Shown: piece after piece, positions 3,254 to 21,896 of the stretch
Position numbering within the stretch: position 1 is the first letter of the stretch
Layout: each line of letters opens with the position of its first letter
Source: a virus
Taxonomy: Duplodnaviria; Caudoviricetes
Strand: one strand, 5' to 3'
DNA length: 35,199 bases
IMG/VR virus record: IMGVR_UViG_3300035548_000056
Coordinates: 1-35,199 of that record
Made by a program: the position numbers and the translations under genes
The notes under the pieces: generated by a model
Seen by the model: the letters and a program-made list of their open reading frames with translations, nothing else
What the model was told of the DNA's origin: nothing
Databases searched by the model: none

Positions 3254-4422
3254 TGGCATTTCAAGATTTTGAACTTACAGACGATGGAGTAGCACTTTTA
3301 TCTCAAGTCCAAGCTGAGTTAGGAAGTTTAAATTTCACAAAAATGAAGATAGGTAACGGAACTTATACTGGTGATATAAAAGACTTAACAGATATAGTAA
3401 GCAGCTTTCATGAATTTGATGTGTCAAGCACAGGAGTGATGGATGATAATTCTGTCAAAGTACAAGGGACTTTTAACAACACGACTTTCGGTACATCTTA
3501 TGAGTTCAGAGAGATTGGTGTGTATGCAAAGCTAGGTGATACAGGGGCAGAAATACTATACTCTTACTCAAAAGATGAAACCCCAGACACTATTCCTGAC
3601 AGTTCTACTATATACAAAAGAACTCTCGATATAAGAAATTGTATATCAGACGTTGACACAGTCACCTTGACAGTAACAGAGATACAAGACAGATATGATT
3701 TTAATACGGTCGCAGAAATGCAAACAGCAGGTTATCTTACGGAAGGGGACAGGTGCAAAACTTGGGGATATTCTACACTAGGCGACAAGCTAGGAAATGA
3801 ATATGAGGTCGTAGCACCTTCTACAGGAACAGACGATGGATGGAACTATATAAATTTGTCAGGTTCAAGTGTCCAGGCCAAGCTATTATCAAGGGCTTTA
3901 ACTGATACAGGCTACACTGTAGATGGGTTCCTGCTAGGGAAAACAGAACTTGTATCTGATACACAATACATGGCTGGGGATGGATACTGGTGGAAACTAA
4001 AAAGTGACACAACTTCACCTTGTGTCCACGATACAACAGATACACCAGACAGCACATATTTAGAAAAAATAACGCATAAAGAAACTTTAGATAAAGTAGA
4101 AAGTTTATTTACAGTCAAAGAAATTTCCAACACTATTTACAATTCCACCGGGAATAAAACACTTTCAACTTCATTAGACAATACTATGAATTATATTTAT
4201 GTTTATGTAGGTTATGGTGCTGATAGCGATATAAAAATATGTAGGATTCCTTATGAATATAAATATAAAAGCTATTCTGTATATGGGGCTACGGCTTCTA
4301 CTAGTGAGACCGAAAGAATAGTTTTTCGTTTCATAAGTGATTCGATACTAGATATTTCTACATATGATGTAAGTGGAGCTGAACAGGTTAACATCGTAAA
4401 AATAGAACAAAGAAATATATAA
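3253..4422 (+). CDS. tail fibre protein (N-terminal tail-collar/baseplate anchor, variable tip after DKVESL)
   Basis: LT..G..L, F.KM.IG.G and FREIGVYAK....EILYSY anchor motifs; position after baseplate genes. Confidence 0.85.
   Translation: MAFQDFELTDDGVALLSQVQAELGSLNFTKMKIGNGTYTGDIKDLTDIVSSFHEFDVSSTGVMDDNSVKVQGTFNNTTFGTSYEFREIGVYAKLGDTGAEILYSYSKDETPDTIPDSSTIYKRTLDIRNCISDVDTVTLTVTEIQDRYDFNTVAEMQTAGYLTEGDRCKTWGYSTLGDKLGNEYEVVAPSTGTDDGWNYINLSGSSVQAKLLSRALTDTGYTVDGFLLGKTELVSDTQYMAGDGYWWKLKSDTTSPCVHDTTDTPDSTYLEKITHKETLDKVESLFTVKEISNTIYNSTGNKTLSTSLDNTMNYIYVYVGYGADSDIKICRIPYEYKYKSYSVYGATASTSETERIVFRFISDSILDISTYDVSGAEQVNIVKIEQRNI
4091..4108 (+). repeat. ATAAA-N8-TTTAT site (spacer GTAGAAAG, class D), inside tail fibre at DKVESL
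   Basis: ataaagtagaaagtttat. Confidence 0.8.
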
Positions 4423-4436
4423 ACTTTAAACTTTAT
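4419..4436 (+). repeat. ATAAA-N8-TTTAT site (spacer CTTTAAAC, class E) overlapping the fibre stop codon
   Basis: ataaactttaaactttat. Confidence 0.8.
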
Positions 4437-4449
4437 AAGGAGGCAACAA

Positions 4450-5109
4450 ATGCAAATATACATACAAAACACAGAAAAACAAACACTCAAATCAATACCC
4501 TACTCAGACATCTACAAAACTAGATATGATAACAGGGAATACACAAAACTATTCCCTTCATATGATTCTACACTTCACACTATAACAGTAGCAGACACAG
4601 AACCATGTCTAACAAACTATGAATTATACCTCAAAGGTGAATATACATTGGGTGAAGGAGAATACATAGAATCAGAATCCATTGCAAAGGCTGTAAAGCC
4701 ATCTAGCTACTATGAATGGGATTATGAGAACTTAGAGTATACTATCTCAGATGAAAAACTTGCAGAGTGGCAAGAGTCTATTGTAGATACACTAGGAGCT
4801 TACAGAGATACAATGCTAGCAACAGGGACAACTTTTGAAGATGTATACACAATTAAAGGAAGGGTGCAAGATTCCTCAGATGCTATGACTTGTTTCATAA
4901 CAGTTTCAAATGGACTACCTGTCACATGGCATTACTCAGATGATACAGGAAGTGAATTGGTATCAGAGGTTGCTAGAATGACAACAATCCTAACAGCAAT
5001 AGGAACATTCAGGAGTTCACAGTTTGACAGAGAAACAGAACTGAAAGCGATCGTGAGAGCTATGACAGGGGAGGAACTGCAAAACTTCGTACTTAGTGAA
5101 ACTTGGTAA
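4450..5109 (+). CDS. putative tail fibre assembly chaperone (DUF4376-like C-terminus)
   Basis: Follows the fibre; P...YEWD, R......G, F.RE.ELK and terminal W pattern. Confidence 0.65.
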   Translation: MQIYIQNTEKQTLKSIPYSDIYKTRYDNREYTKLFPSYDSTLHTITVADTEPCLTNYELYLKGEYTLGEGEYIESESIAKAVKPSSYYEWDYENLEYTISDEKLAEWQESIVDTLGAYRDTMLATGTTFEDVYTIKGRVQDSSDAMTCFITVSNGLPVTWHYSDDTGSELVSEVARMTTILTAIGTFRSSQFDRETELKAIVRAMTGEELQNFVLSETW

Positions 5110-5120
5110 AAGGGGGCTGA

Positions 5121-5450
5121 ATGGAAGAATTGAAATTAAAAGACCTAGAATATGTTGATGGATATAAGGAAGTCATCGAAGAATATAAGTACAAAGACAT
5201 AATTATACCAGAAGGTTTTATGTTTGACGGTGCAAGCATTCCAAAGTATTTAAGGTGGCGTTTTGATCCTTTTGATCCAAGATGGATAAGGGCGGCCTGC
5301 ATTCATGATAGGTTATATTATACACATGAAAAGCCTAGAAAAATTTGCGACAAAATATTAAGAGAAGTAATGCTAGAAGATGGTTCTCCTAAAAGAACTG
5401 CATGGGAATTTTATTATGGAGTAAGACTATTTGGAGGTTCGCATTATTAA
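5121..5450 (+). CDS. DUF1353 family protein
   Basis: IPEGF.FDGASIP, AAC.HD.LY and VRLFG motifs. Confidence 0.85.
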   Translation: MEELKLKDLEYVDGYKEVIEEYKYKDIIIPEGFMFDGASIPKYLRWRFDPFDPRWIRAACIHDRLYYTHEKPRKICDKILREVMLEDGSPKRTAWEFYYGVRLFGGSHY

Positions 5451-5467
5451 AGTAGGAGGTATTGTTT

Positions 5468-5599
5468 ATGTTTAGCTGGTTAAAAAGTTCTTTCGTCAAG
5501 GCTCTGATAAAAATAGGATTAAAAGCATATACAGAAAAGAATGACAATGAAATAACAAATTCTATAGTTGAAGAGATAGAAAAAGAACTAGACGAATAA
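5468..5599 (+). CDS. small hypothetical protein (43 aa, MFSWLKSSF...)
   Basis: AGGAGG RBS, ATG and a stop directly before a terminator; not in the ORF track. Confidence 0.6.
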   Translation: MFSWLKSSFVKALIKIGLKAYTEKNDNEITNSIVEEIEKELDE

Positions 5600-5628
5600 A
5601 AAAAGAGGGGCTTAGTCCTCTCTTTTTT
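5599..5628. terminator. bidirectional intrinsic terminator between convergent operons
   Basis: A-tract, gagggg...cctctc stem, T-tract. Confidence 0.8.
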
Positions 5629-5737
5629 GTAAAATACATTTTTTCAATCTGCAAACTACTATTGTTATACTTGTGTAACCGCGCCCCAGTATTTTAATTT
5701 GCGAGTTTAAACATTTATCACACTCTTTTTTTCTCAT
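5612..5737 (-). CDS. small Cys-rich hypothetical protein (41 aa, MRKKECDKC...)
   Basis: AGGTG RBS; CxxC and CxxxxC. Confidence 0.5.
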   Translation of the reverse strand: MRKKECDKCLNSQIKILGRGYTSITIVVCRLKKCILQKRED

Positions 5738-5755
5738 TCGCGCACACCTAACCTT

Positions 5756-5773
5756 ATAAAATTCTGACTTTAT
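5756..5773 (-). repeat. ATAAA-N8-TTTAT site (spacer GTCAGAAT, class B-like) right after the stop of 5774..5989
   Basis: Reverse strand ataaagtcagaattttat. Confidence 0.8.
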
Positions 5774-5989
5774 TTATAATTTTTCTAAGTCAGCTCTTTC
5801 TCTTATTAAATCTATTAACTCTTTTAATTTTTCTACTATGATCTCATCATTATTAATATCTGGATGTAAAGTACCTAAGCAACTACCCATTTTACCTTCT
5901 TTTTTATATTTCTTATAATTAAATCTAATATAAATTAAAGGTATACTAGTTCTTTTTTCAGTAAGTATATTTCTTAAAAATTTAAACAA
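5774..5989 (-). CDS. hypothetical protein (cassette cargo)
   Basis: GGAGG RBS, TTG start; bounded by two 18-bp sites. Confidence 0.7.
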   Translation of the reverse strand: MFKFLRNILTEKRTSIPLIYIRFNYKKYKKEGKMGSCLGTLHPDINNDEIIVEKLKELIDLIRERADLEKL

Positions 5990-6010
5990 TTTTCAAACCT
6001 CCATTTTCTT

Positions 6011-6028
6011 ATAAAGTCATCACTTTAT
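6011..6028 (-). repeat. ATAAA-N8-TTTAT site (spacer GTGATGAC, class A) overlapping the stop of 6025..6474
   Basis: Reverse strand ataaagtgatgactttat. Confidence 0.85.
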
Positions 6029-6474
6029 ACAATGAATAATACGCTAATAAAAGTCATAACATTCAACAATAATAAAAGGTCTCTAAGTTTAGTTAAACTT
6101 CTATTTTCATCATGTAGTAATTCATTTCGAAGCATAAAAACATCCCTACAAGCACAAACGTTTTCATACATCTCAATAACTTGCTCTTTGCTTTTTTCTG
6201 AACACTTCACATAAGATTCTTCTATTAACTCGGACGGTTCTTTTACTATACCGTGAACTTCTTCAAGTGTTTTATGAATATAGCACGACTTTCTTTTGTT
6301 ATCCTTCCTGAGATTAACATAGAGGTATTCATGATTTTTGAAGTTTTTAACTTGTGGAGTTAATACTAAGCCTTTTATATGTCTTCCATCTCTAGTCAGT
6401 CTATCAAGCGATCTAACTTGACCTTTGTCGTTTATTTGGTACAGCCCCTCATACCCAGGTATATCTTTATACAT
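6025..6474 (-). CDS. NUMOD4-domain protein, HNH part lost, hydrophobic C-terminus
   Basis: KDIPGYEGLYQIN..G.VRS NUMOD4 motif; no HNH motif after IHK. Confidence 0.75.
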   Translation of the reverse strand: MYKDIPGYEGLYQINDKGQVRSLDRLTRDGRHIKGLVLTPQVKNFKNHEYLYVNLRKDNKRKSCYIHKTLEEVHGIVKEPSELIEESYVKCSEKSKEQVIEMYENVCACRDVFMLRNELLHDENRSLTKLRDLLLLLNVMTFISVLFIV

Positions 6475-6704
6475 TTACTCCCCTCCTAGTTTATAAAAAT
6501 ACTCATCATTATCAAGCTTTACATTAAACCCATCGTTAAAAATCCACATTGAGCATACATCACGGTGACTAGATTCAACTCTTAACCACTATCACAGGCA
6601 CCACTTTATCCACAACATAAGGTCATCTAGTTCATCAAAACCAACTATACCAAAAGGATCTTTTTTTACTCTGCCATCCTCATAATACCAAGTACATTTT
6701 CCAA
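6475..6704 (-). pseudogene. probable decayed small ORF with internal TGA-TAG
   Basis: Frame LENVLGYEDG...KWCL**WLRVESS...GGE* fills the gap between neighbouring genes; upstream GGGGAG. Confidence 0.4.
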
Positions 6705-6729
6705 ACATTTTAAGCTCCCCCCCAGTTTT

Positions 6730-7188
6730 TTATAAGTATTCCACGCATCCACAAAACAACTTTTCCTCAGCTTTTCTTCTCCTAACTAGACCGTTTACAA
6801 CTTTTCCACCTGCTTTATTCCACCTTCTAAATTCTAGAGCTGCAGCTGGATAATCACCTTCTTTTAGCTTTTTAAGTAGAGTCGACTTCCTAAAAGCCGT
6901 AGAACCTATATTGTAGGTGAAAGATACAAGCGCATCAAATTGATCTTGAGATAATTTTACATCTACAACTTTATTTATTAGCGTTTGAAACCTGTTTATA
7001 TCCAATCTGAGCAATTCCTCTGCTCTTTCCACTGTGATTGTATCACCTTCTTTTACATGCCTGTGAGTGTCCTTGTAATAGGTTGTTCCAATTCCTATAG
7101 TCCAAATACCGGCACTGCATTGATAAGCTTCTAGCTTCAATCCTTCAAAATGTTTTATTAATTCAATACCTTTTTTACTTATTAACAT
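6730..7188 (-). CDS. lysozyme / endolysin, GH24 family
   Basis: FEGLKLEAYQCSAG.WTIG.G, QFDALVSF.YN.G and GLVRRR.AE motifs. Confidence 0.95.
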   Translation of the reverse strand: MLISKKGIELIKHFEGLKLEAYQCSAGIWTIGIGTTYYKDTHRHVKEGDTITVERAEELLRLDINRFQTLINKVVDVKLSQDQFDALVSFTYNIGSTAFRKSTLLKKLKEGDYPAAALEFRRWNKAGGKVVNGLVRRRKAEEKLFCGCVEYL

Positions 7189-7231
7189 TCTTCCCCCTGT
7201 TTACCACATTTTTTACAAGTCATAATCCCTC

Positions 7232-7744
7232 CTATTTTTTCGTACTGTCAAACTTACCTTCTCCACGCTCAGACTCAAAGGCTAACACTTCATCGGCTCC
7301 ACACTCTCTTATATCCATTTTAGGCACTTCTAAAAACATAACCTGAGCAATTGCTTTGCTTACTGGATAAACGATACAATCGCCTTTTTCATATACTTTT
7401 TCAACAAAGTCTGTTATATACAATATTTTTTCATTACAATTAGTAATGACAACATTCCAGATGCCTCTATAATTACTATCTATTACACCGCTACCGTATT
7501 TCATGCCTTTTATCCCAGTGCTTCCTCTCTCTTGAAATTGCGCATAATACTTTTCTGAGAAAACAGTCCTTATTCCGGTACTTAGTATTGCAGTGCTTAG
7601 CGGAGGTATAGACAACCAACCTTGGTGTTCTTCTCGGAACCATACAGGATTGACATAAAGGTCAAATCCTGCATCTCCATTTCTTTTGCTTAGAGGTTTA
7701 CACTCTTCATTCTCTCTAGAAAACAATAATTCCAACTCTTTCAT
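7232..7744 (-). CDS. dut: trimeric dUTPase
   Basis: DAGFDL, ERGS, GVIDSNYRG, IAQ and RGEG.F.ST motifs I-V. Confidence 0.93.
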   Translation of the reverse strand: MKELELLFSRENEECKPLSKRNGDAGFDLYVNPVWFREEHQGWLSIPPLSTAILSTGIRTVFSEKYYAQFQERGSTGIKGMKYGSGVIDSNYRGIWNVVITNCNEKILYITDFVEKVYEKGDCIVYPVSKAIAQVMFLEVPKMDIRECGADEVLAFESERGEGKFDSTKK

Positions 7745-7905
7745 ATTACCTCCTTGAACTTTTTACACGCCGGGCTCTCTATTGTGTTTCTTTCGTACTT
7801 CTCAGGGTGTTCATAGTAACACAATTCATAATGTAGGTAATCACAACAACATTTGCCAACTAATTTATCTGTAAGCCACATTTTTAAATCTATCCATAGT
7901 GACAT
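7741..7905 (-). CDS. small Cys-containing hypothetical protein (54 aa)
   Basis: AGGAGG RBS; stop overlaps the dUTPase ATG (ATGA). Confidence 0.65.
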   Translation of the reverse strand: MSLWIDLKMWLTDKLVGKCCCDYLHYELCYYEHPEKYERNTIESPACKKFKEVI

Positions 7906-7928
7906 TTTGTACCCTCCTATAATTTTAT

Positions 7929-7946
7929 ATAAATACCAAAATTTAT
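7929..7946 (-). repeat. ATAAA-N8-TTTAT site (spacer TTTTGGTA, class C) right after the stop at 7947
   Basis: Reverse strand ataaattttggtatttat. Confidence 0.85.
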
Positions 7947-8386
7947 TTAGATTTTTAAAGCTTCACGCACATCTTCGGCGGTATGCCCGTCAAACTCAAA
8001 TAATGCTCTTTCAGTTTTCTTACATTTAAATAAGTCCCAATCTTTAACTTTGTAGTGGTTAGATATTTGTCCAGTAGGTAACATGGCCACTACTATAAAC
8101 CATCCACCACCGAAACACTCCTCGCCATCAAAGTGTCTTAAAGACTTATGTACATTATACTTGCCTTGCTCATACCATTCATTAAACAAACAAGCATTAT
8201 ATAATTTCCTAAATTCATAAAGCTCATTAAAACTATGGTATCCATCAGATAACTCGCCACTTTCTATTTGTTTTTCAATCAGTTCTAGTTCTTTTTTTAT
8301 AATTCATAAGACTGTAAATGTAACATCATTTGTCTGTTTATTTTGAATCTTTTCCTGAGTTCGATTATAAATTCTTATCTAGTCAT
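7947..8386 (-). pseudogene. phage protein with SDGYHSFNELY...FDGH motifs, 5' end disrupted
   Basis: The conserved-looking frame extends upstream of the called start to ~8300; upstream ATGs (8307, 8386) are out of frame, and 8386 hits TAA at codon 4. Confidence 0.65.
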
Positions 8387-8502
8387 TAATCTTCCTCCGC
8401 GAGAACTATTTTCCATGCTTCTTTTAAAGTTATATCGCCATATTTACTTAATAAAATGTCTATAACGTCTAATTTATCAACTGTTGTAAATTTCTTTTTC
8501 AT
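8386..8502 (-). CDS. small hypothetical protein (38 aa, MKKKFTTVDK...)
   Basis: AAGGAG RBS immediately after an 18-bp site. Confidence 0.55.
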   Translation of the reverse strand: MKKKFTTVDKLDVIDILLSKYGDITLKEAWKIVLAEED

Positions 8503-8517
8503 AATTAACTCCTTTGG

Positions 8518-8535
8518 ATAAAGTTCTGAATTTAT
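8518..8535 (-). repeat. ATAAA-N8-TTTAT site (spacer TTCAGAAC, class B) overlapping the stop of 8532..8729
   Basis: Reverse strand ataaattcagaactttat, identical to 16182-16199. Confidence 0.9.
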
Positions 8536-8729
8536 ACAGGTATTTTTAATTCTTTGCAGATCTCTTTATAGTTCATTTCATCCATTAAAAATTTATACAA
8601 TTTAGGGTGCGTTTGCTTAAGTTTAATCATTCTGTTTTCATCGGCACCTTTATAGCAACCATACAAACAACCATAACATCCAGTTCTTTTATACCCGTGC
8701 TTTGTGTAAGCTTCGGATAAATTCATCAC
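8532..8729 (-). CDS. C-terminal fragment of a phage PAPS-reductase-like protein
   Basis: Y..GY.RTGC..C.YG......R...LK..HPK.Y motif without the N-terminal nucleotide-binding domain. Confidence 0.6.
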   Translation of the reverse strand: MMNLSEAYTKHGYKRTGCYGCLYGCYKGADENRMIKLKQTHPKLYKFLMDEMNYKEICKELKIPV

Positions 8730-9208
8730 TTTATTGTTAAATTATTTTTCACTTCAATGTGTGCCCCAGGGACTTCACGAGTATTTAACTCTTTTTTAAG
8801 TTCTACTTTGCTTATTTCATATTCTACCTTTAAAAAGTTATTAGGCACCTTGTCAGCGTCATCTATAACCACAGAAGAGGATTTCCTAAGACTAATATCC
8901 CCTATAGAGGTTTCTATTTTTTTTAGTTCCAACTTCTCCATGTTTAAAACAACATATTTTTTGAAGTTTTCGATAGCCTTTTGGCGTGCAATTCTCAAGT
9001 TTTTTAGCCTGGATTCTTCATTTTTTATAGTTTCAATGTCACTTTCAAGGTTTTTTATAACTTTTATTATCCCAGCACTTTTTTTTTCAAGTGCTTTTTC
9101 AAGTTCAACCTGAAGGGCAGACAAGGCGTCTGCATCCTCCAAAGTTTCACAACTATACATTAATTCCTCAAGTGCGTTTTCTTCATTTACGATATCATAT
9201 AATTTCAT
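8726..9208 (-). CDS. siphovirus Gp157 family protein
   Basis: MKLYDI start, coiled coil, RKSSSV.I.D...P and VPGA motifs. Confidence 0.88.
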   Translation of the reverse strand: MKLYDIVNEENALEELMYSCETLEDADALSALQVELEKALEKKSAGIIKVIKNLESDIETIKNEESRLKNLRIARQKAIENFKKYVVLNMEKLELKKIETSIGDISLRKSSSVVIDDADKVPNNFLKVEYEISKVELKKELNTREVPGAHIEVKNNLTIK

Positions 9209-9218
9209 ATTTTACCTC

Positions 9219-9581
9219 CTAAAATGGATAATCTTCTGTTGTCTCAGGTTCTTGCTGCTTCTGTGGTGCTTCCTGTGTCTTCTTACTGTCCAGGAACTCT
9301 ATCTGATCGACAATAACATCATAAGTGGTTATTTTTTTCCCCTCTACCTCGTACCGATTCATTTGAAGCCTTCCTTGTATTCCTAGTTTGCTCCCTTTCC
9401 TCATATACTCACATAAAAGCTCGGCAGTCTTTCCAAAAGCCACACAGTTTATAAAGTCCACATCGTCTTTTTTAAAAGGTCTGTCTACCGCTATTGAGAA
9501 CCTGCAGTAAGCTTTACCGCCTTGAGCATATTTTAATTCCGGGTCTCTTGTCATTCTACCTGTTAAGATTGTTAGATTCAT
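9219..9581 (-). CDS. ssb: single-stranded DNA-binding protein
   Basis: L.GR.TRDPELKY, DFINCVAFGKTAE and acidic DYPF tail. Confidence 0.96.
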   Translation of the reverse strand: MNLTILTGRMTRDPELKYAQGGKAYCRFSIAVDRPFKKDDVDFINCVAFGKTAELLCEYMRKGSKLGIQGRLQMNRYEVEGKKITTYDVIVDQIEFLDSKKTQEAPQKQQEPETTEDYPF

Positions 9582-10105
9582 TTTTTTACCTCCATATATA
9601 TTTTTTTAAGATCTTCTAACGACTTGTTTTTTAAAGTTTCTTTTGTATATTCATCGGTTAGTTTTATTATACTTCCAACCGCTGCATCTATTCTCTTATT
9701 CTCCTCTATAACGTGTTGTATATCTTCTCCGGTATAAAAACTCAAACCTATACCAAACATGGCTATATTCTTAGCCAAGCACCTCACGATTGCATCTCCT
9801 ATCTGCCGGCTATTTGGGTTAGGAACTGCCTTAAATTTATTGTCCATAACAGGGAGGAACATTTTTTTAGTTAGCCCAAATGCAGTGACTGAGGTTTTAA
9901 CAAAATGACTCTCCCCTCTGCTAAAACAAGGGAAACCATTTTCATCCTCTAGAACTTCATAAGTGGCAGTTACGTCTTGTTCAAGTAGCAACTTATAAGC
10001 GTTGGCCCAGCTGATATATTTTATTCCTTGGTAATTTTTTTCTGTGACTTTTAGAGTTTCCTCTAAGTTATAATTTTTAATAAATATTTCTTTACTGAAT
10101 TTCAT
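9578..10105 (-). CDS. single-strand annealing protein, Sak3/DUF1071 family
   Basis: Y.SWA.A, LPVMD and RCLAKNIAMFG.GL..Y.GED motifs; adjacent to ssb. Confidence 0.88.
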   Translation of the reverse strand: MKFSKEIFIKNYNLEETLKVTEKNYQGIKYISWANAYKLLLEQDVTATYEVLEDENGFPCFSRGESHFVKTSVTAFGLTKKMFLPVMDNKFKAVPNPNSRQIGDAIVRCLAKNIAMFGIGLSFYTGEDIQHVIEENKRIDAAVGSIIKLTDEYTKETLKNKSLEDLKKIYMEVKK

Positions 10106-10359
10106 TATTCACCCTCCTCAAAACTTATAGTCTCCCAGCAGGAAGCTTTTATTTTACTTTTTATTTCTACTTTTTTATATTCTTTCGTAAGTTTCTGTGC
10201 GTATCTAATGGCGTCATGTATTTCTCTGAATCCCTTCACTTCTTTTCTGACTGTAAACTTTTCGCCATCTATTATTTCATCTTCACATATAACCCCCACC
10301 TTAAAGTTGCAAGGCGGGGTTAAAAAGTCGGTCGTAATTACTGGATTATTCATCTTCAT
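10105..10359 (-). CDS. hypothetical protein
   Basis: Translationally coupled on both sides. Confidence 0.65.
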   Translation of the reverse strand: MKMNNPVITTDFLTPPCNFKVGVICEDEIIDGEKFTVRKEVKGFREIHDAIRYAQKLTKEYKKVEIKSKIKASCWETISFEEGE

Positions 10360-10643
10360 TCCGAGTACTCCTGGCTTGTGACTTCTTTATGTATTTTCTC
10401 AATCTGGTATTTTTCAAGTTCATATAGTTCGTCCTCTGTCCACCTAAAAGAGTGATCCAGTATATCAGAAACTAGGTTTTCAAAAGTATTTTTAACGTCT
10501 ATCTCCCAGGTTAAGCCGTAACCTTCAAGTTCGTTTACACTCTGTCCACATATACATTGATATTGCCTTTCGTAAGGTTCAGTATAACCATCTCCCCACC
10601 TTCTAGTTACTACCATATCTTTACCGCATAGATTACATATCAT
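10356..10643 (-). CDS. hypothetical zinc-ribbon protein (start MICNLCG)
   Basis: GGAGGGG RBS before the internal ATG; CxxC and CxC. Confidence 0.65.
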   Translation of the reverse strand: MICNLCGKDMVVTRRWGDGYTEPYERQYQCICGQSVNELEGYGLTWEIDVKNTFENLVSDILDHSFRWTEDELYELEKYQIEKIHKEVTSQEYSE

Positions 10644-10721
10644 TTTAACCCCTCCAAATAAAACCACTATTATTGCCATTGTTACCATTTCGAGTACCTG
10701 ATCTTTGTTTTCAGAAGGTGT

Positions 10722-10841: not shown

Positions 10842-10855
10842 ATTAATCCTCCTTT

Positions 10856-10875: not shown

Positions 10876-10877
10876 AT

Positions 10878-14235: not shown

Positions 14236-14251
14236 AAAAAGGGTGTGAAAA

Positions 14252-14542
14252 ATGATAGTGAAAATTAAATTTTTAAGAGAAGAATTAAGCGAATATTTAA
14301 GACTAAATCCAGAAGAAAAAACTCGTATTCATGAAAGAATAAAAGAAATATCAAAAAGGGTGTCTACTTATGAACATTTATCGCCCGGGGATGATTTTTA
14401 CTGCGGAGTACACATGTTAAAAAAAGCAATAAATAAAGATTTTGACGAGTGCTTATTTTACACACTTGAAAAAATAACTGAAGTTGGTAATCCAAAAGTA
14501 AAATTGGTGAGTTATATTGTAATGCCGTTTATATGTATGTAA
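14252..14542 (+). CDS. hypothetical protein
   Basis: ORF with RBS in the rightward operon. Confidence 0.6.
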   Translation: MIVKIKFLREELSEYLRLNPEEKTRIHERIKEISKRVSTYEHLSPGDDFYCGVHMLKKAINKDFDECLFYTLEKITEVGNPKVKLVSYIVMPFICM

Positions 14543-14551
14543 GGAGGTAGC

Positions 14552-14830
14552 ATGTATAAAACTCAAACCTTAGACGAGCTAAAAGACTTATACAAGGTAG
14601 AATTAAAAAAATACAATGCACAGGAAAAGTGGATTGAAGCTAACCCAAACAAGGCACATAAAATTATTAAAGGTAAGATTCCATTTAAGATGTTTTTAGA
14701 AACTCTAAGCAACTTAGGACAAATAGGTTATGAAATGGAAGATAGATTCAACTATATACAATCTACAGAAGAAAGGTTCGGGGAACTTGGACCTTTTCAG
14801 AAAGAAGTAATTGAGAGGTTAGGATTATGA
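14552..14830 (+). CDS. hypothetical protein
   Basis: AAGGAGG RBS. Confidence 0.7.
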   Translation: MYKTQTLDELKDLYKVELKKYNAQEKWIEANPNKAHKIIKGKIPFKMFLETLSNLGQIGYEMEDRFNYIQSTEERFGELGPFQKEVIERLGL

Positions 14831-15162
14831 AAATCATAAAAGGCACAGTCCTAAAAGATATAGCTATTTTTAATCATCAACGTAAAATAGTATCATGGAC
14901 AAAAGAAGAAGCCAAACTACCAGCCAAAACTTTTATGATAGAAGGTTACTGTCATATATTTGAGGATAAAATAGACTTCAAAGATCTGTATAAAATGTAT
15001 GGCTATAAACCTCCTGAGAAGCTCACAAAACAAAATAAATATGATATCCTAGCACTTACAAGGGATAGACATCAAGAAGGCACATTAAACCACACATACT
15101 GGAACTACTTCTGTGAAAAGTTTATGCCGTCACATTTAAAAAACCAAATAAAATTATTCTAA
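14827..15162 (+). CDS. hypothetical protein
   Basis: ATGA coupling to the upstream gene. Confidence 0.65.
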   Translation: MKIIKGTVLKDIAIFNHQRKIVSWTKEEAKLPAKTFMIEGYCHIFEDKIDFKDLYKMYGYKPPEKLTKQNKYDILALTRDRHQEGTLNHTYWNYFCEKFMPSHLKNQIKLF

Positions 15163-15174
15163 CAAGGAGCAATT

Positions 15175-15924
15175 ATGGAAAAAATTGTAAATGAAGTATT
15201 TAAAAATGTAAATGACCGTGAATACCGTGTATTGTCCTATGAAGGTAAAGAAAAGAAAGGTAAAGCATATAAGCACTTTTATAAAATACAGTTCCTCGAC
15301 ACTAAAAACGAGTATCTGGAAGAGCGAACCAAGGTCAGGACGTCAAAATGCAAAGACTTGCTGCACATCAAACTTATGAAGTCTAAAATTAAACAACAAA
15401 AGCTAAAAGAACGTGCAAGAGTTACGAAACGTGATAAGAACACTCTAAAACGCTTTGATTTTGATTTTAAGACCATTCTGTCACTCGACCTAAGTACAAA
15501 GTCGTCCGGCTGGTGTGTAGGCTCTAAAACGTGTATAAAGGCTTTTGGTTGCATATCACAAGATAGCAATAATTGGAGAGAAAGAAACTATAATACAATA
15601 GTTGAAATTGAAAAAATAATAAACACCTACAAGGTGGACATAGTATTTATAGAGGCAACCTTCCTTGGTTTATCCAGTTCCGTACTTGAGAAACTATGTG
15701 AGTTACGAGGTGGGGTATTTAAACTTATTATGGAGTATAACTGTGAATATGAAGTAATAATGCCTAATACCTGGAAACATTACCACAATTTAGGTGTAGG
15801 AAGACAAGAGCAGAAGGCGGCTAGTGTAAAAAAAGCTAGTTCAATCTTAAAAAGTAAAGTAAATGATGATGTAGCGGACAGTTGTTTGTTGTATATATAC
15901 GCAGTAAAAAATCTAATAAAGTGA
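15175..15924 (+). CDS. RuvC-like Holliday junction resolvase with N-terminal extension
   Basis: ILSLDLSTKSSGW, DIVFIE, P.TWK and DDVADS acidic motifs. Confidence 0.85.
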   Translation: MEKIVNEVFKNVNDREYRVLSYEGKEKKGKAYKHFYKIQFLDTKNEYLEERTKVRTSKCKDLLHIKLMKSKIKQQKLKERARVTKRDKNTLKRFDFDFKTILSLDLSTKSSGWCVGSKTCIKAFGCISQDSNNWRERNYNTIVEIEKIINTYKVDIVFIEATFLGLSSSVLEKLCELRGGVFKLIMEYNCEYEVIMPNTWKHYHNLGVGRQEQKAASVKKASSILKSKVNDDVADSCLLYIYAVKNLIK

Positions 15925-15933
15925 TGAATTTAT
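15916..15933 (+). repeat. ATAAA-N8-TTTAT site (spacer GTGATGAA, class A) containing the resolvase stop
   Basis: ataaagtgatgaatttat; 17/18 identical to the 6011 site. Confidence 0.85.
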
Positions 15934-15951
15934 TTAGAAAAGAGGTCATGT

Positions 15952-16185
15952 ATGAAACATACAATTAAGTTGATTAATAATTATAAAGAAATTTTAGAAA
16001 AAAATTATTCAGATGAACCAGAGTTGCTAGATAAGTACTTAAAACAATATAAATCATTAGAAAACATTGAGGTAGAAGTTGATAGTAAAAATATTTTTGG
16101 AGTTTTTAATGAACTATTTGAAATTAACGGTTATGAAAAACAGGTTTTCTGCACAGATTATTTTAAACTTTTAAAATCTAAATAA
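15952..16185 (+). CDS. hypothetical protein (cassette cargo)
   Basis: GAGG RBS; bounded by two 18-bp sites. Confidence 0.7.
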   Translation: MKHTIKLINNYKEILEKNYSDEPELLDKYLKQYKSLENIEVEVDSKNIFGVFNELFEINGYEKQVFCTDYFKLLKSK

Positions 16186-16199
16186 ATTCAGAACTTTAT
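16182..16199 (+). repeat. ATAAA-N8-TTTAT site (spacer TTCAGAAC, class B) overlapping a stop codon
   Basis: ataaattcagaactttat. Confidence 0.9.
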
Positions 16200-16232
16200 T
16201 GGGTTATATAAATAAAAATATTGGAGGCAAAT

Positions 16233-16640
16233 GTGAATATTATAAAAATAAAAGAATTGAAAGATCAGAAATATGATGAAAATTATGTTGCGATAGATGG
16301 TAAAGATATGGTCATCGAAATAGACGATCTCGGAGAAGAAATTTATTGGATTTAAAAAGAAGGTGAGATTGAAGATCTAAAAGTTCATCCAACTAGAAAA
16401 GAAGTGTTTTCTTTAGATGCTGATTCAATAGTAGAAAACTTTTACGATAGTGGTGTTATATTTGAAGATTGTGAATTTCCAAGAAATCGTACAAAAGAAT
16501 TACAGGAGCTTTTAGATAAATGGTGTGAAGAGGTTAAAGGAGAAGTAGATGTTTGTTACGAGATTTATTACGAAACTCTTATAGATGTATCTGAAATTAT
16601 CGAGGAAGTAAAAAGGAAAATCGAGGATGAAACCAGATAA
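16233..16640 (+). pseudogene. 135-codon acidic hypothetical ORF with one in-frame TAA (16353-16355)
   Basis: GGAGG RBS + GTG 16233 is in frame with ORF 16404..16640, with a single stop between them. Confidence 0.7.
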
Positions 16641-16654
16641 ATTTTGGAATTTAT
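16637..16654 (+). repeat. ATAAA-N8-TTTAT site (spacer TTTTGGAA, class C) overlapping a stop codon
   Basis: ataaattttggaatttat; 17/18 identical to the 7929 site. Confidence 0.85.
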
Positions 16655-16680
16655 AAGTAATTATGAGGGGGATTGCATAA

Positions 16681-16923
16681 ATGCGGGAAATAAAATTTAA
16701 GGCGTGGGATGATGACGATAAAAAAATGCTAGAAGCTCAGGATTTGACACAGAATTCTGAATATTGGAAGTGGCTTGGTAAAAAAGATGTAAAACTATTA
16801 CAATTCACAGGTAAGAAGGATTCAAAAGGTGTAGAAATCTACGAAGGCGACATAATACAGTCTGTAAATGGACTGAAATATGTAATTTATTACAACAAAA
16901 ACAGTGCAGCTTTTGATGCCTAA
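16681..16923 (+). CDS. YopX family protein, probably C-terminally truncated
   Basis: MREIKFKAWD and QFTG.KD.KG.EIYEGDI; lacks the usual EVIGN ending. Confidence 0.85.
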   Translation: MREIKFKAWDDDDKKMLEAQDLTQNSEYWKWLGKKDVKLLQFTGKKDSKGVEIYEGDIIQSVNGLKYVIYYNKNSAAFDA

Positions 16924-16952
16924 TGTATTAAAAGAATATAATTTGATAATTG

Positions 16953-16978
16953 AAAGGGCCTAATTGCCCTTTTTTTTT
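16953..16978 (+). terminator. intrinsic terminator
   Basis: aagggc-ctaatt-gccctt + T-tract. Confidence 0.8.
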
Positions 16979-17007
16979 ATGTATAGTATAATATAAGTAA
17001 AGGGGGG

Positions 17008-17379
17008 GTGCATGAAAAATACAGGGGAGATCATATTAGGAGTAGGGTTGTTCACGATGCATCTGATTTGGAAGGTAATATGTATCAGAAGATGATATAC
17101 TTCCATATGTGTAGGTTAGCAAATGAAGATAATGAGTGCATTGTTAGCTTAAGAAGGCTTAGAGAAAGAGTAAAATGTAACAATAAAGTTTTTCTTAAGG
17201 AATTTAATAGTCTTAAGAAGTCGGGTCTTGTTGTTCCAGTGGGTAAAGGAACAAGAGGAGATGAGTTTGGAATGTGTAAATTTGAAGATACAATTAGATA
17301 CAAGGTTGAAAACTATGGTCTTAATTCAACACTTACTGAACTAATGAATCAAGTCGATGAAAATTATGGTAAAAAATGA
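17008..17379 (+). CDS. winged-HTH protein, replication-initiator-like N-terminal fold
   Basis: K..Y..MC..A....C..S...L......N.......L...GLV pattern; directly precedes the large palindrome. Confidence 0.55.
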   Translation: MHEKYRGDHIRSRVVHDASDLEGNMYQKMIYFHMCRLANEDNECIVSLRRLRERVKCNNKVFLKEFNSLKKSGLVVPVGKGTRGDEFGMCKFEDTIRYKVENYGLNSTLTELMNQVDENYGKK

Positions 17380-17383
17380 TTTT

Positions 17384-17568
17384 GGACATTTTAGAAGTAC
17401 ATATAAGAAACATAATATTTAAAACCATATATACTATTATTATATTATATACTATATATACTGTATTTAATTATACATAGTACTATATATAGTATTACTA
17501 TAAGTAAGTATATATAATTAAATGATGTTTTTAATTAATTGTTTCTTATATGTACTTCCCATTTGTCC
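17384..17568. repeat. ~185-bp imperfect AT-rich palindrome (candidate origin / cruciform)
   Basis: Perfect 19-bp arms 17394-17412 and 17540-17558; the interior is also imperfectly self-complementary. Confidence 0.8.
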
Positions 17569-17842
17569 TTTTTCTTTCTTGGGATTCGATGTAAGAGGCT
17601 TATAACTGGCTTTTCCTTGTGGTGAATAGTATATTGTGTTATATTGTTTTTGTGGATACAAGGTGTATAATGGGGTTCTGAGAAAGTATATAAACTATTT
17701 ACTGTGTTTAATTGCTCAGATTGTTTGATTCTTTTGTATTGTTCCCCTTTAGTTACATTTAGCATCTAAACCAATATACAGTAGTAGCAGTTGTATGAAG
17801 ATTTTTGTTTCACAAACATTTGACATAATTTAACATGATACT

Positions 17843-18700
17843 TTGGAGGTTTTAAAATTGGCTAGAAAAAATAAATTGATACAACCATTTCTGAAATGGG
17901 CTGGAGGAAAAAGACAATTATTAGAAGAAATAGATAAATACATTCCTAGTAAAATATCTACATATTACGAACCATTTGTAGGTGCTGGGGCTGTTCTTTT
18001 TGATTTGCAACCTAAAAAAGCAATTATAAATGATGCTAATGAGGATTTAGTAAATGTTTATAAGGTCATTAAGGATAATGTGGACTTGCTAATTGAAGAT
18101 TTAAAGAAGCATAAGAATGAAAAAGAGTACTATTATGAGGTAAGAAAACTAGACAGAACTGATGTCTATGAGAAAATGAGCGATATAGAGAAAGCATCTA
18201 GAATCTTATTTTTGAACAAGACTTGCTTTAATGGGCTTTTCAGAGTTAATAGTTCAGGTGAGTTCAATGTTCCATTTGGTAGGTATAAGAACCCTAATAT
18301 TGTTAATGAAGAAGTGCTTAGGGCAGTTAGTCATTATTTGAATAATAATAATGTAAAAATTATTCATGGTGATTTTGAAGATGCAGTAAAAGGTATGAGA
18401 AAACAGGCTTTTGTATATTTTGACCCACCATATCACCCACTATCAGATAGTTCTTCTTTTACAGGGTACACTCTAGATGGGTTTGATAAGAACGACCAAA
18501 TACGACTTAAAGAACTATGTGATGATTTGAATGAAAGAGGTTGTAGATTCTTATTATCTAATTCAAGTGCCTCTTTTATTTTGGAACTTTACAAGGACTA
18601 TAATATTGAACTTGTAGGTGCAAGCAGAAGCATTAACTCTAAAGGAAATAAAAGAGGAGAAGTCAAAGAGGTGTTGGTGAGTAATTTTGATTTGGAGTGA
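17843..18700 (+). CDS. dam: Dam-like (D12 class) DNA adenine methyltransferase; probable start TTG 17858
   Basis: PFLKWAGGKRQL, EPFVGAGA, LNKTCFNGLFRVN..G.FNVPFG and DPPY. Confidence 0.93.
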   Translation: MEVLKLARKNKLIQPFLKWAGGKRQLLEEIDKYIPSKISTYYEPFVGAGAVLFDLQPKKAIINDANEDLVNVYKVIKDNVDLLIEDLKKHKNEKEYYYEVRKLDRTDVYEKMSDIEKASRILFLNKTCFNGLFRVNSSGEFNVPFGRYKNPNIVNEEVLRAVSHYLNNNNVKIIHGDFEDAVKGMRKQAFVYFDPPYHPLSDSSSFTGYTLDGFDKNDQIRLKELCDDLNERGCRFLLSNSSASFILELYKDYNIELVGASRSINSKGNKRGEVKEVLVSNFDLE

Positions 18701-19062
18701 TTTTAATGGGAAGAAAGAAAAAAAAGAATACAAATAAAGACAGGCTTGTAGATAAGAAATGGGATAAGTTATTTGAGAAATACGATATTCTTCATAAAAT
18801 AGGACAAGATGGTTACTTTCATATAACCTCTACACAAATAAATGAGTTTAGGGAAGCAAGATTGATGACTAAATTCGACCACAGAAATAATTTGCCTAAC
18901 TTATTTTTTAGAAATAATTTAAGCATTTTGCCTACAACTAGAGGTTCTTATATTATTGGTAAGTTTAATGCTTATCAAGATATAAATTTAGATTATTCTA
19001 AAATAGAGGTTAAAAAGGTTTCTTTTCCAAATTGGATTGAGGGGGGACCAGCACACCTATAA
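18697..19062 (+). pseudogene. N-terminal fragment of a putative type II restriction endonuclease cognate to the MTase
   Basis: Overlaps the MTase stop; W..LF.KY.I, REARLM.KFDH...LP and ILP..RGSY.IG.F..Y; ends abruptly after PNWIE. Confidence 0.65.
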
Positions 19063-19310: not shown

Positions 19311-19564
19311 TGGATTTCAAAGATCTTTTGAATTTACCTCTCGATGTCATTATATTAGGGACCTTGGTAATTGTCATCAAGTGGCTCTTACAGAAGGTAG
19401 ATGACCTTATACAGGATTCTAAAGAAGATAGATCAAGATATATAGATTCAATTAATAGCATATATAAAAAAATGGATAAGATGGATAGCATGGATAAAAA
19501 AGTAGACTCTATGGACACTAAAATAGACGTTATTTATGATATAATGAAGAGAGGTGATAGATGA
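19310..19564 (+). CDS. putative holin-like protein (one TM segment + coiled coil, BhlA/UviB-like)
   Basis: VIILGTLVIVIKWLL followed by a charged heptad tail. Confidence 0.55.
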   Translation: MDFKDLLNLPLDVIILGTLVIVIKWLLQKVDDLIQDSKEDRSRYIDSINSIYKKMDKMDSMDKKVDSMDTKIDVIYDIMKRGDR

Positions 19565-21351
19565 TGGCTTATGACGATCAGTCGGAAGAAGTAAACGGAT
19601 TATTAAATGAAGATGGGACAGTGACTACATATAGCGGGGAGGTGGTGGACTTGTCAGCGGCAACAGAAGAATATAAAAGGCGATTGCCACGAGTAAATAA
19701 ATTTTTAAACCCTGATGGTAGCGTGTCTACGTTTGGAGATGTGAGTGGTGTTAATTTCAAGCTAGACACAGGGTATGAAGACGGGGGGCTGTTGTTAGGG
19801 GTGACTCAAATAACATCAACAGAGATTGTATATTTGGCTGGAGATGGTGTGCATTATAAGCTCATAACTGGTACAACGGTTCCTTACACGCATGACGGGA
19901 CAGATGCTCCGAATATGACATATTTTGAAGAAGTTAGCTACAAGACGACTTCGGATAAATTAGAGAATTTACAAGAAGTTGTATTTAATACCGATAAGGT
20001 TTATGGTGTTGAGTTTAGTGGTAGTGACCCAGTCGGCACTAGAATATTAGATGCAATAGATATGGTAGCAGAGGTCGGGCTTGACGATTCTACAGTTACA
20101 AATGATTTTGATAGCGTGAGTTTTTTTGACAGACCTATTTGCTGTGGAACTCATGACTCAGATGGCAACTTCACAGTTAATGCCTACAAAGGGGATCCCG
20201 ACTTTGCAAGTGACGGAAGTAATGGAGAGGTGTTTTATGAATGTGCGCCTTTCTATTGGAATGAAAGTTACGACAGACCATGTGTAACTGCTAGTGCTAG
20301 AAGCGGATTCAAGCTTGCTCCAATGTTTAAAAATGATAAAAACAAGGTATATCTCCCTGTGTACTGGTTGTCAATGGTGGATGGAGTTGCGACTTCTAGA
20401 AGTGGGACATTTGGCACTTATAATTCAGTTAACAGGCATATGACTAATGCAAGAACTTACAACGCAACTAACGCACATATCGAGACTATGAAAGTGAGAA
20501 TATCTGAATATGTCTTGCAGTTAGTGGAGTTTGCCACAAAAGACTTTCAGACTGTCATGATGGGTGCTAGTTCTATGGCTTACAGTGATTTGCATGTGGC
20601 TACAGTTGCTGAAACTTCTGCAAATAGAATAATAATAAGTAACGCTTATTCGGGACAATTCGTGGTAGGGCAGACGATAGCTATAGGAAGTTCTCGTGGT
20701 TCAAATTCAGTCGCATCAGACAGGTTAATAACTTCTATAGACACTTATGATACTGAAAACGACGCTATCACATTCGACGGGGATGCCGTAGATATAACTG
20801 CAGGCGACGTAGTAAGCTCGCGACCATGGGTGAACGGTGCCCTGGATGTAGTCGAGGCTTCAAGTGGTTCAATAGGTTCTAATACTAGCGGGAAATATCC
20901 TTGCATTTGGAGAGGGAAGGTTGATCCATGGGGAGATGCCTTTTCCGGCTTATGTGATGTGCTTATTCAGAGAAATGGAACTGGAAGTGGCGAAGACCCT
21001 TACACTTACAGGCCTTATATCTTAGAAGACCCTAGGCTGTACTCTGGTGGGACTATAACAGGTGATTATATAGAACTTAATTACGACACTGCTCAGTCTG
21101 ACGGGTATGCAAAGACTCTAGGGAAAGACTCGAGATACCCTTATGCGTCGTTGACGAGTGAGGTCGGCGCGGCCAGCACTACTTATCTTAGTGGATATTA
21201 TTATTATCCTAGGTATGACGTGAGCGTGGTTTTTGCCGGCGGTGTCTGGTACAGCGGCCGGTTTTGTTCTCCGGTGTTCTTCGTCCTGTACGATTCCCCG
21301 TCTAGCTCGCAAATCAACCGTCTTGCCCGCCTTTTTGTTACCCGGGCTTAA
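19561..21351 (+). CDS. second fibre / receptor-binding protein with C-terminal CLec-type (DGR-target-like) domain
   Basis: Shares a ~69-aa domain with the tail fibre; WRG...PWG and terminal AGG.W..G..C...F......S......ARL motif. Confidence 0.8.
   Translation: MMAYDDQSEEVNGLLNEDGTVTTYSGEVVDLSAATEEYKRRLPRVNKFLNPDGSVSTFGDVSGVNFKLDTGYEDGGLLLGVTQITSTEIVYLAGDGVHYKLITGTTVPYTHDGTDAPNMTYFEEVSYKTTSDKLENLQEVVFNTDKVYGVEFSGSDPVGTRILDAIDMVAEVGLDDSTVTNDFDSVSFFDRPICCGTHDSDGNFTVNAYKGDPDFASDGSNGEVFYECAPFYWNESYDRPCVTASARSGFKLAPMFKNDKNKVYLPVYWLSMVDGVATSRSGTFGTYNSVNRHMTNARTYNATNAHIETMKVRISEYVLQLVEFATKDFQTVMMGASSMAYSDLHVATVAETSANRIIISNAYSGQFVVGQTIAIGSSRGSNSVASDRLITSIDTYDTENDAITFDGDAVDITAGDVVSSRPWVNGALDVVEASSGSIGSNTSGKYPCIWRGKVDPWGDAFSGLCDVLIQRNGTGSGEDPYTYRPYILEDPRLYSGGTITGDYIELNYDTAQSDGYAKTLGKDSRYPYASLTSEVGAASTTYLSGYYYYPRYDVSVVFAGGVWYSGRFCSPVFFVLYDSPSSSQINRLARLFVTRA
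19955..19972 (+). repeat. ATAAA-N8-TTTA(C) site (spacer TTAGAGAA, class D) at DKLENL
   Basis: ataaattagagaatttac; same protein position as the 4091 site. Confidence 0.7.
21226..21351 (+). other. DGR variable-region-like segment
   Basis: Only 10 A in 114 nt (21226-21339); scaffold codons are A-free and interspersed with NNC/NNT codons. Confidence 0.75.
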
Positions 21352-21377
21352 GGGGGTTTGGGGGAACCTTCCCCCAA
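21352..21377 (+). other. GC-rich hairpin directly after the VR (DGR target-recognition type)
   Basis: gggggt-ttgggggaa-cc-ttcccccaa, with no following U-tract. Confidence 0.7.
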
Positions 21378-21431
21378 TGGAATTTTGAATAAATAAACAT
21401 AAAATAAAAAAACTTAAAGAGGTGATAAGGA

Positions 21432-21758
21432 ATGAAAGCAGAAAGCACGATTATGCCCGCATCTCCATATGAGATAACGTTCAATGGAGACTACGCAGAA
21501 ATTGAATTTTTTACAAATATTACTGAATCGGAGGTGGAAGAGGGCGAGGCCGCCAAATGGGAGTATGACCACTACAGGTATACTACTAGATACAGAGACA
21601 CGTTAATAACAAGTTTAGATAACAATTACGACAGTTGGCTAGAAAAAGCTATAGAAAAAGAAGAAGCTGAAAACACTGTTGAAGAAACCGAGGCAGAGAA
21701 GATAGAAGAGTTGGAAAGTGCACTTGAAATACTTATTTTAGGCAGCTTGGAGGTGTAA
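21432..21758 (+). CDS. putative fibre chaperone (XkdW-like position)
   Basis: Acidic 108 aa with C-terminal T.AEKI.ELE.AL helix; lies between the fibre and an XkdX-like gene. Confidence 0.6.
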   Translation: MKAESTIMPASPYEITFNGDYAEIEFFTNITESEVEEGEAAKWEYDHYRYTTRYRDTLITSLDNNYDSWLEKAIEKEEAENTVEETEAEKIEELESALEILILGSLEV

Positions 21759-21759
21759 T

Positions 21760-21882
21760 ATGTACTCGATTTTGAAAAAAATGTATGTAGCAGGTAAATT
21801 GACAGAAACAGGGCTAGACAATGCTATTGCAAAAGGATGGATAACAGAGGTGGAAAAAGAAGAGATACTTGCCTCCTTATAA
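21760..21882 (+). CDS. XkdX-like small protein (40 aa)
   Basis: GGAGG RBS; MYSILKKMYVAGKLT...A.AKGWITE.E.EEI. Confidence 0.75.
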   Translation: MYSILKKMYVAGKLTETGLDNAIAKGWITEVEKEEILASL

Positions 21883-21896
21883 ATTCTAAAATTTAT
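21879..21896 (+). repeat. ATAAA-N8-TTTAT site (spacer TTCTAAAA, class E) overlapping the XkdX-like stop
   Basis: ataaattctaaaatttat. Confidence 0.8.

Follow-up and report, generated by a model that had tools for sequence, protein, structure and literature searches.

Palindromic sites with recurring centres at the joints of accessory genes and fibre tips in a tailed phage

Introduction

The C-terminal tip of a fibre or adhesin can be switched by recombination at a site that lies in frame within its gene, as in the Gin/gix system of Mu, the Cin/cix system of P1 and the shufflon of R64. Integron cassettes carry one gene per unit, often with the stop codon inside the recombination site, and the dRS3/NIME elements of Neisseria comprise a short palindrome with a variable centre, present in many chromosomal copies that flank mosaic repeats; we know of no role of dRS3 in the exchange of phage fibres. 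How single genes and fibre tips are swapped precisely between unrelated phages is an old question, and the usual answer is illegitimate or short-homology recombination together with selection. In Acinetobacter, one study (PMC11705084) found that Xer recombination joined plasmids only where the centres of the sites were closely related, and no deletion inside a single molecule was seen. Here we analyse the palindromic site ATAAA-N8-TTTAT in a virus record of the Caudoviricetes (Duplodnaviria; IMG/VR IMGVR_UViG_3300035548_000056), whose whole stretch of 35,199 nucleotides, hereafter the window, has a 127-base terminal repeat and genes for baseplate, fibre, head and replication proteins. A preliminary description of this DNA had proposed that such sites delimit exchangeable cassettes. 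Comparison with related sequences gives good support to the view that they are joints at which accessory genes and fibre tips differ between relatives.

Results

A strict palindrome is enriched at gene ends and at fibre-domain junctions

The preliminary description had listed ten perfect copies of the site and one copy with a single mismatch at 19955. All of these were recovered, and an eleventh perfect copy, at 8717, had been overlooked, which brings the total to 12 sites, 11 of them perfect. Chance had been expected to produce about one copy; shuffled sequences contained 0.45 on average and 3 at most, and none of 100 reached 11, so that the enrichment over shuffled controls is clear. When one mismatch was allowed, the excess was modest (19 versus 9.97 expected), and arms separated by alternative spacers of 0 to 15 bases gave no matches except with N12 (3) and N14 (1). 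The sites revealed a tighter consensus than first described, ATAAAKT-N4-AMTTTAT, with pyrimidines 3 to 5 bases outside each arm (23 of the 24 arms at −3, P = 3e-6). Conservation spans approximately 11+6+11 bp (about 28 bp): on each arm it extends from position −5 as far as the T-N4-A centre, with the outer positions only weakly conserved; the half-sites are symmetric (24/24), and distinct XerC and XerD arms are not present. With a weight matrix derived from the 12 sites, in which the centre was ignored, these sites scored 18.6–23.8 bits and the best match elsewhere (1–4000, 8800–15850 and 22000–35199) scored 6.6, in agreement with the earlier observation that the core genes contain none.

Nine sites had been assigned to stop codons; in fact all ten sites outside the fibre genes contain a stop codon or directly follow one. 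The next ribosome-binding site (RBS), said to come usually just after, does so in seven of these ten, as judged by eye. The remaining two sites lie, as described, in frame in the fibre genes, where the peptides that they encode, DKVESL and DKLENL, come after a homologous linker.

The variable arm positions 6 and 13 pair in 5 of the 12 sites, approximately as expected if they were independent, which indicates no covariation. Folding is weak in 11 of the 12 sites (−0.5 to −6.1 kcal/mol), and only the site at 19955 folds well (−10.3 kcal/mol, z = −4.6). Given that the arms are conserved, the spacing strict and the centre variable, with no pairing covariation and weak folding, we read the site as duplex half-sites; the strict spacing and the free variation in the arms suggest that a dimeric protein binds the predicted duplex arms. 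At the ends of the two fibre modules, the 10 bases to the right of the site at 4419 match, in reverse complement, the 10 bases to the left of the site at 21879 (4419–4446 versus 21869–21896; 28 nt, 89%). Such a pattern is what a half-site joined backwards at a near-symmetric centre would be expected to leave.

The centres recur according to slot

Read with transcription, the centres of the left arm are GATG (8717), CAGA (8518), TTGG (7929), GATG (6011) and CAGA (5756), and those of the right arm are GATG (15916), CAGA (16182) and TTGG (16637). The fibre modules follow the pattern AGAR to YTAA, running from AGAA to TTAA in fibre 1 and from AGAG to CTAA in fibre 2. Seven pairs with identical centres occur among the 12 sites, versus 0.76 expected (P = 5e-4 without orientation and 1.5e-5 with it), and all seven share their orientation relative to transcription. 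In the left arm, a GATG–CAGA slot holds a PAPS-reductase remnant, and the CAGA–TTGG slot holds a 38-aa gene and a damaged WDGH gene.

The same centres were found in a prophage of a Fusobacteriaceae genome (G039). The only blastn match between this prophage and the window is 24 bases long and corresponds to the fibre site, which is identical over these 24 bp to the site at 19955; protein likeness was found for the lysin and the chaperone, and tblastx gave no match between its cargo genes and the window. In the fibre gene of the prophage, an AGAG site (DKLENL, same frame) precedes an esterase and LamG tip; a CTAA site follows closely on the stop codon, and the chaperone comes next. Fibre 1, fibre 2 and the prophage fibre all have the site in frame, at one and the same codon. 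Six further sites, with the centres GATG, GATG, CAGA, GATG, CAGA and CGAA, lie between small early genes of the prophage. Seven of its eight centres, including both fibre sites, belong to the set of the window, an outcome obtained in 0 of 100000 random draws.

Relatives part and rejoin at a subset of the sites

Contigs from four sequencing runs were mapped to positions 3500–17400, and the results refer to the 15 of 19 joints that were listed; the close relatives L001, L002 and L271 stop short of the fibre site. The expectation that breakpoints in relatives coincide with sites held in part: 6 of the 29 distinct joint ends fall on them (4108, 4419, 5769, 8536, 8717 and 15933) and 23 elsewhere. 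This proportion differs strongly from a uniform distribution (P = 5e-6) and less so when only gene junctions are considered (5 of 18, P = 0.02). In the relative L019, identity stops at the last base of the site at 15916 and another gene follows. The alignment of the best five of eight fibre-1 homologues revealed a common linker and DKVESL followed by four unrelated tips; the divergence starts at the last base of the site, and one tip occurs on two different N-termini. For fibre 2, six of 144 homologues were aligned, and likeness to the distant ones starts directly after the site. The joint ends and the fibre alleles thus support the claim that the sites delimit accessory genes and fibre tips. 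The proposal of mobile cassettes is sustained as far as exchange joints are concerned; no inversion joint was among those listed, nor was a site-to-site joint listed for the source-like run X2.

The site is abundant in some chromosomes of the putative host lineage

The SSB of the phage is closest to those of Fusobacteriaceae, with 74% to an Ilyobacter metagenome-assembled genome (G006), and from this likeness alone an Ilyobacter-type host is likely. Halanaerobium, guessed from the oil-field habitat, was discarded as the host because the SSB relatives indicated Fusobacteriaceae instead. In the one CRISPR array of G006 considered, a single spacer of 32 carries a CAGA site, and none of the 32 matches the phage beyond the site itself. 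This genome contains 28 exact sites, versus 1 in the control. Among 61 genomes of the family, six have 6–19 strict sites (controls 0–1) and 55 have 0–4; a further count, in G049, gave 122 sites of the CAGT/CAAT type versus 3 in the control, and the GATG-centre site is present in 5 of 190 genomes. Across 80 SSB loci (1.37 Mb) only 2 sites were found, versus 5 in the control, which indicates that the site is not general in prophages of Fusobacteriota or Firmicutes. Since the site is abundant in some Ilyobacter-type chromosomes, the protein that binds it is likely the host's.

The sites of G049 are mostly inverted pairs located about 26 bases inside the ends of a non-coding repeat of 350–600 bases, and 20 places on an Ilyobacter polytropus plasmid resemble this repeat. 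G049 and G024 share two orthologous loci in which the flanking sequence and the site itself are conserved, and in which the interiors differ from the inner edge of the site onwards. The two genomes contain about 60 copies of this modular repeat (e.g., L127:3500–4060); its outer inverted ends are degenerate, its hairpin-bearing interiors are mosaic, and it has a target duplication rich in AT.

A 9.6-kb element is present in three copies in G006 (L265:2679–12328, L266 and L267), with a CAGA-to-AAAA slot that has two different contents. The copies are 99.7% identical up to CAGA, their identity stops one base past the centre, and they rejoin at the AAAA site. The element encodes a lysozyme, a Mutator-type transposase and other genes of no known family; this content led us to reject an inovirus, and it is possibly a small transposable virus. 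Runs of sites in the same genome also bracket single chromosomal genes (L268:7351–9075 and L269:14784–15892), with the centres CAGG, CAAA and AAAA.

Recombinases of the phage and of the host lineage

As the preliminary description had stated, the phage encodes no recombinase: neither PF00589 nor PF00239 had a match in the window. The G039 prophage encodes a large serine integrase, RecT and YqaJ, and PF00589 was absent from it among the matches listed. A serine recombinase was discarded as the enzyme, since none was found in the site-rich genomes G024 and G019. The four tyrosine-recombinase genes of G024, all conserved, are XerD-like, terminus Xer-like, degenerate XerC-like and FimB-like (240 aa). 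A conserved Xer-like gene of Fusobacteriaceae is located at the switch in GC skew (terminus) in 51 of 81 genomes. In the loci inspected (L184–L213) this recombinase is apparently intact and the adjoining motif contains AAGTCCT in 22 of 30, so that the gene and the motif are a candidate single-enzyme dif system; a degenerate XerC-like gene is also carried elsewhere in Fusobacteriaceae genomes. This candidate for the host dif, the motif at the terminus, differs from our site and is not enriched genome-wide.

Looser versions of the motif

In 124 of the 134 kb of phage SPbeta, TAAAR-N6-YTTTA occurs 37 times, versus 1–11 times for other spacings, and 17 of these 37 copies are no more than 30 bases away from the end of a gene (P = 2e-9). 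When SPbeta was compared with phage Goe13, 6 of 20 alignment ends fell at these copies, which cover 1.9% of the stretch. A 167-kb phage (G001) with three tyrosine recombinases contains 15 plain motifs versus 3 in the control and is a looser relative only. A scan of viral contigs for paired sites gave six loci; four looked like AT-rich chance matches, and a stricter matrix found fewer than 2 matches in each. In a Fusobacterium-type phage contig (L026:7486–7570), two identical ATAAACT-TTTT-AGTTTAT palindromes lie just after a TTGACA hexamer and are probably true operators.

Features of the window

The coordinates of the sites and of the genes next to them are collected in Table 1. The genes of the window include those for Sak, SSB, gp157 and a RuvC-like protein.

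Table 1. Sites, fibre genes and cargo genes of the window
Feature	Position	Strand	Centre	Remarks
Tail fibre 1	3253..4422	+		389 aa; tip is residues beyond 285
Site	4091..4108	+	AGAA	In frame (DKVESL), start of fibre-1 tip; relatives' joint at 4108
Site	4419..4436	+	TTAA	Contains fibre-1 stop; RBS of DUF4376-like chaperone next; relatives' joint at 4419
DUF4376-like fibre chaperone	4450..5109	+		Homologue in G039 prophage comes after the CTAA site there
Site	5756..5773	-	CAGA	Directly 3' of 71-aa gene stop; relatives' joint at 5769
71-aa cargo gene	5774..5989	-		In GATG–CAGA slot; 40% homologue in 167-kb phage
Site	6011..6028	-	GATG	Contains stop of NUMOD4/HNH-like gene
Site	7929..7946	-	TTGG	Directly 3' of WDGH-domain open reading frame; conserved in relative L020
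Left-arm cargo	7947..8729	-		PAPS-reductase remnant, 38-aa gene, damaged WDGH gene
Site	8518..8535	-	CAGA	Contains stop of PAPS-reductase remnant; relatives' joint at 8536
Site	8717..8734	-	GATG	Contains gp157 stop; two joints at 8717
Sak single-strand annealing protein	9578..10105	-		Proposed actor in the annealase explanation
Site	15916..15933	+	GATG	Contains stop of RuvC-like gene; relatives part at 15933
Right-arm cargo	15952..16640	+		77-aa gene (GATG–CAGA slot), split gene (CAGA–TTGG slot); replacements in relatives
Site	16182..16199	+	CAGA	Contains stop of 77-aa gene
Site	16637..16654	+	TTGG	5' of truncated YopX; in G004 present behind another gene
Fibre 2 (596 aa), 108-aa gene, XkdX-like gene	19561..21882	+		
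Site, one mismatch	19955..19972	+	AGAG	In frame (DKLENL), start of fibre-2 tip
Fibre-2 tip module	within 19561..21882			From AGAG site to CTAA site
Site	21879..21896	+	CTAA	Contains XkdX-like stop; ends fibre-2 tip module

Other variable regions were observed. A 2-kb block (17052–19044), composed of an HTH_36 gene, an AT-rich inverted repeat, a Dam-type methylase and a truncated DUF6996, is not present in the relatives L019 and G004, and its ends lie away from the sites. At 11384–14541 the window has a 901-aa helicase-like replication gene, and another module takes its place in L019 and in run X17. The open reading frame of the terminase large subunit ends early and is followed by a 0.3-kb insert (23559–23878), which suggests an intron or a decayed mobile insert; a relative (G005) is about 0.6 kb longer here. 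The last 40 residues of fibre 2 (19561–21378) are 72% identical to the closest allele, versus 86% upstream, with the changes at fixed positions, and a GC-rich hairpin lies 3' of the stop codon. This C-terminus looks like the pattern of a diversity-generating-retroelement target; a reverse transcriptase was not found among the open reading frames scanned.

Discussion

We lean, if only slightly, towards a mechanism in which a site-specific recombinase of the host first joins two co-resident genomes at sites with the same centre, after which a second crossover swaps the slot, in a pdif-like manner. A dimeric protein would read both arms on double-stranded DNA, and crossing over would require matching centres. 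A first crossover between same-centre sites of an infecting phage and a prophage would fuse the two genomes; a second one, at the next pair of sites with matching centres, would separate them again with the intervening piece exchanged. With a different centre at either end of a slot, a gene would be kept from deleting itself and the tips would remain in frame. The enzyme would probably be a tyrosine recombinase, and an Ilyobacter-type host probably supplies it. In the preliminary description, the two-armed architecture had been taken as that of a tyrosine-recombinase site; the class of the enzyme stands as a proposal. More tentatively, a single recombinase and its site could be common to the whole host lineage, and a common set of centres could determine which slot a cargo enters (start of the fibre tip, end of the tip or an early-gene slot); the SPbeta palindrome could be the Bacillus counterpart.

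Several observations weigh against a recombinase of this kind. The majority of the listed joint ends (23 of 29) fall away from the sites; the fibre-2 module of G004 was lost through a deletion outside the sites that used short homologies, and the PAPS-reductase remnant arose by deletion at a 9-base repeat that overlaps the end of the site at 8717. Pairs of same-centre sites in direct orientation persist, and in SPbeta the centres are all different within the genome. No recombinase linked to the site was found in the phage, the G039 prophage or the Fusobacteriaceae genomes, nor did any recombinase family prove specific to all the genomes rich in the site; in one of these, G024, PF00589 matched only four genes and PF00239 none. 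The motif beside the terminus Xer-like gene (22/30 loci) is a different one, and both phages encode annealases (Sak in the window, RecT in the G039 prophage). In the host repeats, the variable arm base tracks the outer end and not the interior (P = 3e-4), so that the flipping of interiors there does not come from crossing over within the centre, and inversion of the repeat interior by this route was rejected. Lastly, the source-like run X2 gave no site-to-site joint among those listed; given that contigs drop rare variants, this does not show inactivity. The persistence of same-centre direct pairs would be explained if, as in the Acinetobacter model, deletion does not occur within one molecule.

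The main alternative, which we regard as less likely, is that the sites are maintained because a host DNA-binding protein requires them, for chromosome organisation or for the coupling of transcription or translation at gene ends, and that the phages' own annealases, Sak or RecT, exchange DNA there. The sites would then be the only identities of 18–25 bp between diverged genomes, and identical centres would provide the longest homology. The presence of Sak, SSB, gp157 and a RuvC-like protein in the window, and of RecT and YqaJ in the G039 prophage, is consistent with this, as are the short-homology deletions that happen in this phage group, the common identity that exceeds the 18-mer (24 bp; 42 nt at 76%) and the host-repeat linkage, which does not put crossovers in the centre. 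Conserved motifs around receptor-binding domains have also been proposed as homology hotspots (PMC10408124). However, annealing leaves unexplained why three fibre genes have the site at one codon, in frame, and why the two ends of a slot have different centres, since identical direct repeats would serve homology better. Moreover, no annealase was seen among the six scanned proteins of the 9.6-kb element.

It is improbable that the sites are operators or roadblocks for a Cro-like or host repressor, with breakpoints located there because mosaics break at gene junctions. Dimeric regulators typically bind palindromes like this one, of 18 bp with 7-bp arms, and the enrichment within gene junctions alone is just P = 0.02; in SPbeta a protein with a recombinase fold is a pure repressor (PMC10516654). 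Nevertheless, the divergent control region (11000–11420) contains no site (best match 4.1 bits), the sites are on stop codons and inside fibre genes, and the recurrent asymmetric centres would be unexplained; the presence of the site in host-lineage chromosomes, where it is common, also makes plain Cro operators unlikely. Single-strand hairpins cut by an HUH (REP-associated) transposase or an integron-type integrase are more improbable still, since the arm bases do not covary, 11 of the 12 sites fold weakly and none of 11 Y1-transposase loci in five site-rich genomes carries the site, even though host copies flank hairpin-rich repeats and the site at 19955 folds well.

The same site and centres, in the same slots, are thus found in two phages otherwise without common DNA, and the site is also present in host-lineage chromosomes. 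Under the more tentative reading of one recombinase common to the host lineage, unrelated phages, small phage-like elements and chromosomal repeats would all use it, and receptor-binding tips and accessory genes would pass between them in frame. The hunt for the protein narrows to a few genes of a culturable group of anaerobes, the looser SPbeta version offers a test in Bacillus subtilis, and the enzyme, if found, would provide a natural multi-address cassette-exchange system.

Comparison with known systems

A literature search, whose reach left out most subscription papers, found neither this site nor the SPbeta junction motif described. The system works like one of dif modules, yet its features set it apart from Xer sites, integrons, invertases and PeSLs. 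As in the fibre invertases and the shufflon, the site is in frame at the junction of constant and variable parts; unlike them, the locus has no recombinase gene, each fibre gene has one tip with no inverted silent tips, the alternative tips reside in other genomes, and no inversion joint was listed. One gene per unit and a stop codon within the site are shared with integron cassettes, whereas an integrase and an attC-like hairpin are absent and there are several slots across the genome. The PeSL cassettes of T4-type phages (PMC2839356) likewise involve short repeats in hyperplastic regions where genes are inserted, deleted and replaced, but PeSLs comprise a promoter and a terminator stem-loop, whereas our sites fold weakly, measure 18–28 bp and are also found within genes and in host chromosomes. 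In coliphage tailspikes (PMC10408124), one motif lies between the anchor and the receptor-binding domain and another downstream, across genera; those motifs are 20–95 nt long with 63–81% identity, in contrast to the single palindrome with slot-specific centres that serves both fibres and accessory genes here. The dRS3/NIME elements of Neisseria (PMC3454330) are also variable-centre palindromes beside mosaic repeats and linked to rearrangements, in a different sequence and taxon. The TAAAA-N6-TTTTA palindromes of SPbeta share the TAAA-N8-TTTA spacing, the location at stop codons of accessory genes and the coincidence with swap points; they differ in their looser arms and all-different centres, and SPbeta-like phages encode their own tyrosine recombinases.

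The closest likeness in mode of action is to the pdif sites and dif modules of Acinetobacter (PMC6449649, PMC11705084). Our sites differ from these in that ATAA and TTAT are 10 bases apart instead of directly flanking the centre (PMC11705084), in their symmetric arms, in having phages as carriers, in their position on stop codons or in frame in fibre genes, and in that no link was found to the terminus Xer-like gene of the host. In both systems, many two-armed sites of about 28 bp are located in accessory regions, neighbouring sites differ in their centres and exchange is modelled as cointegration followed by resolution; in Acinetobacter the enzyme, XerC/XerD, is provided in trans by the host, and we propose that the same may apply here.

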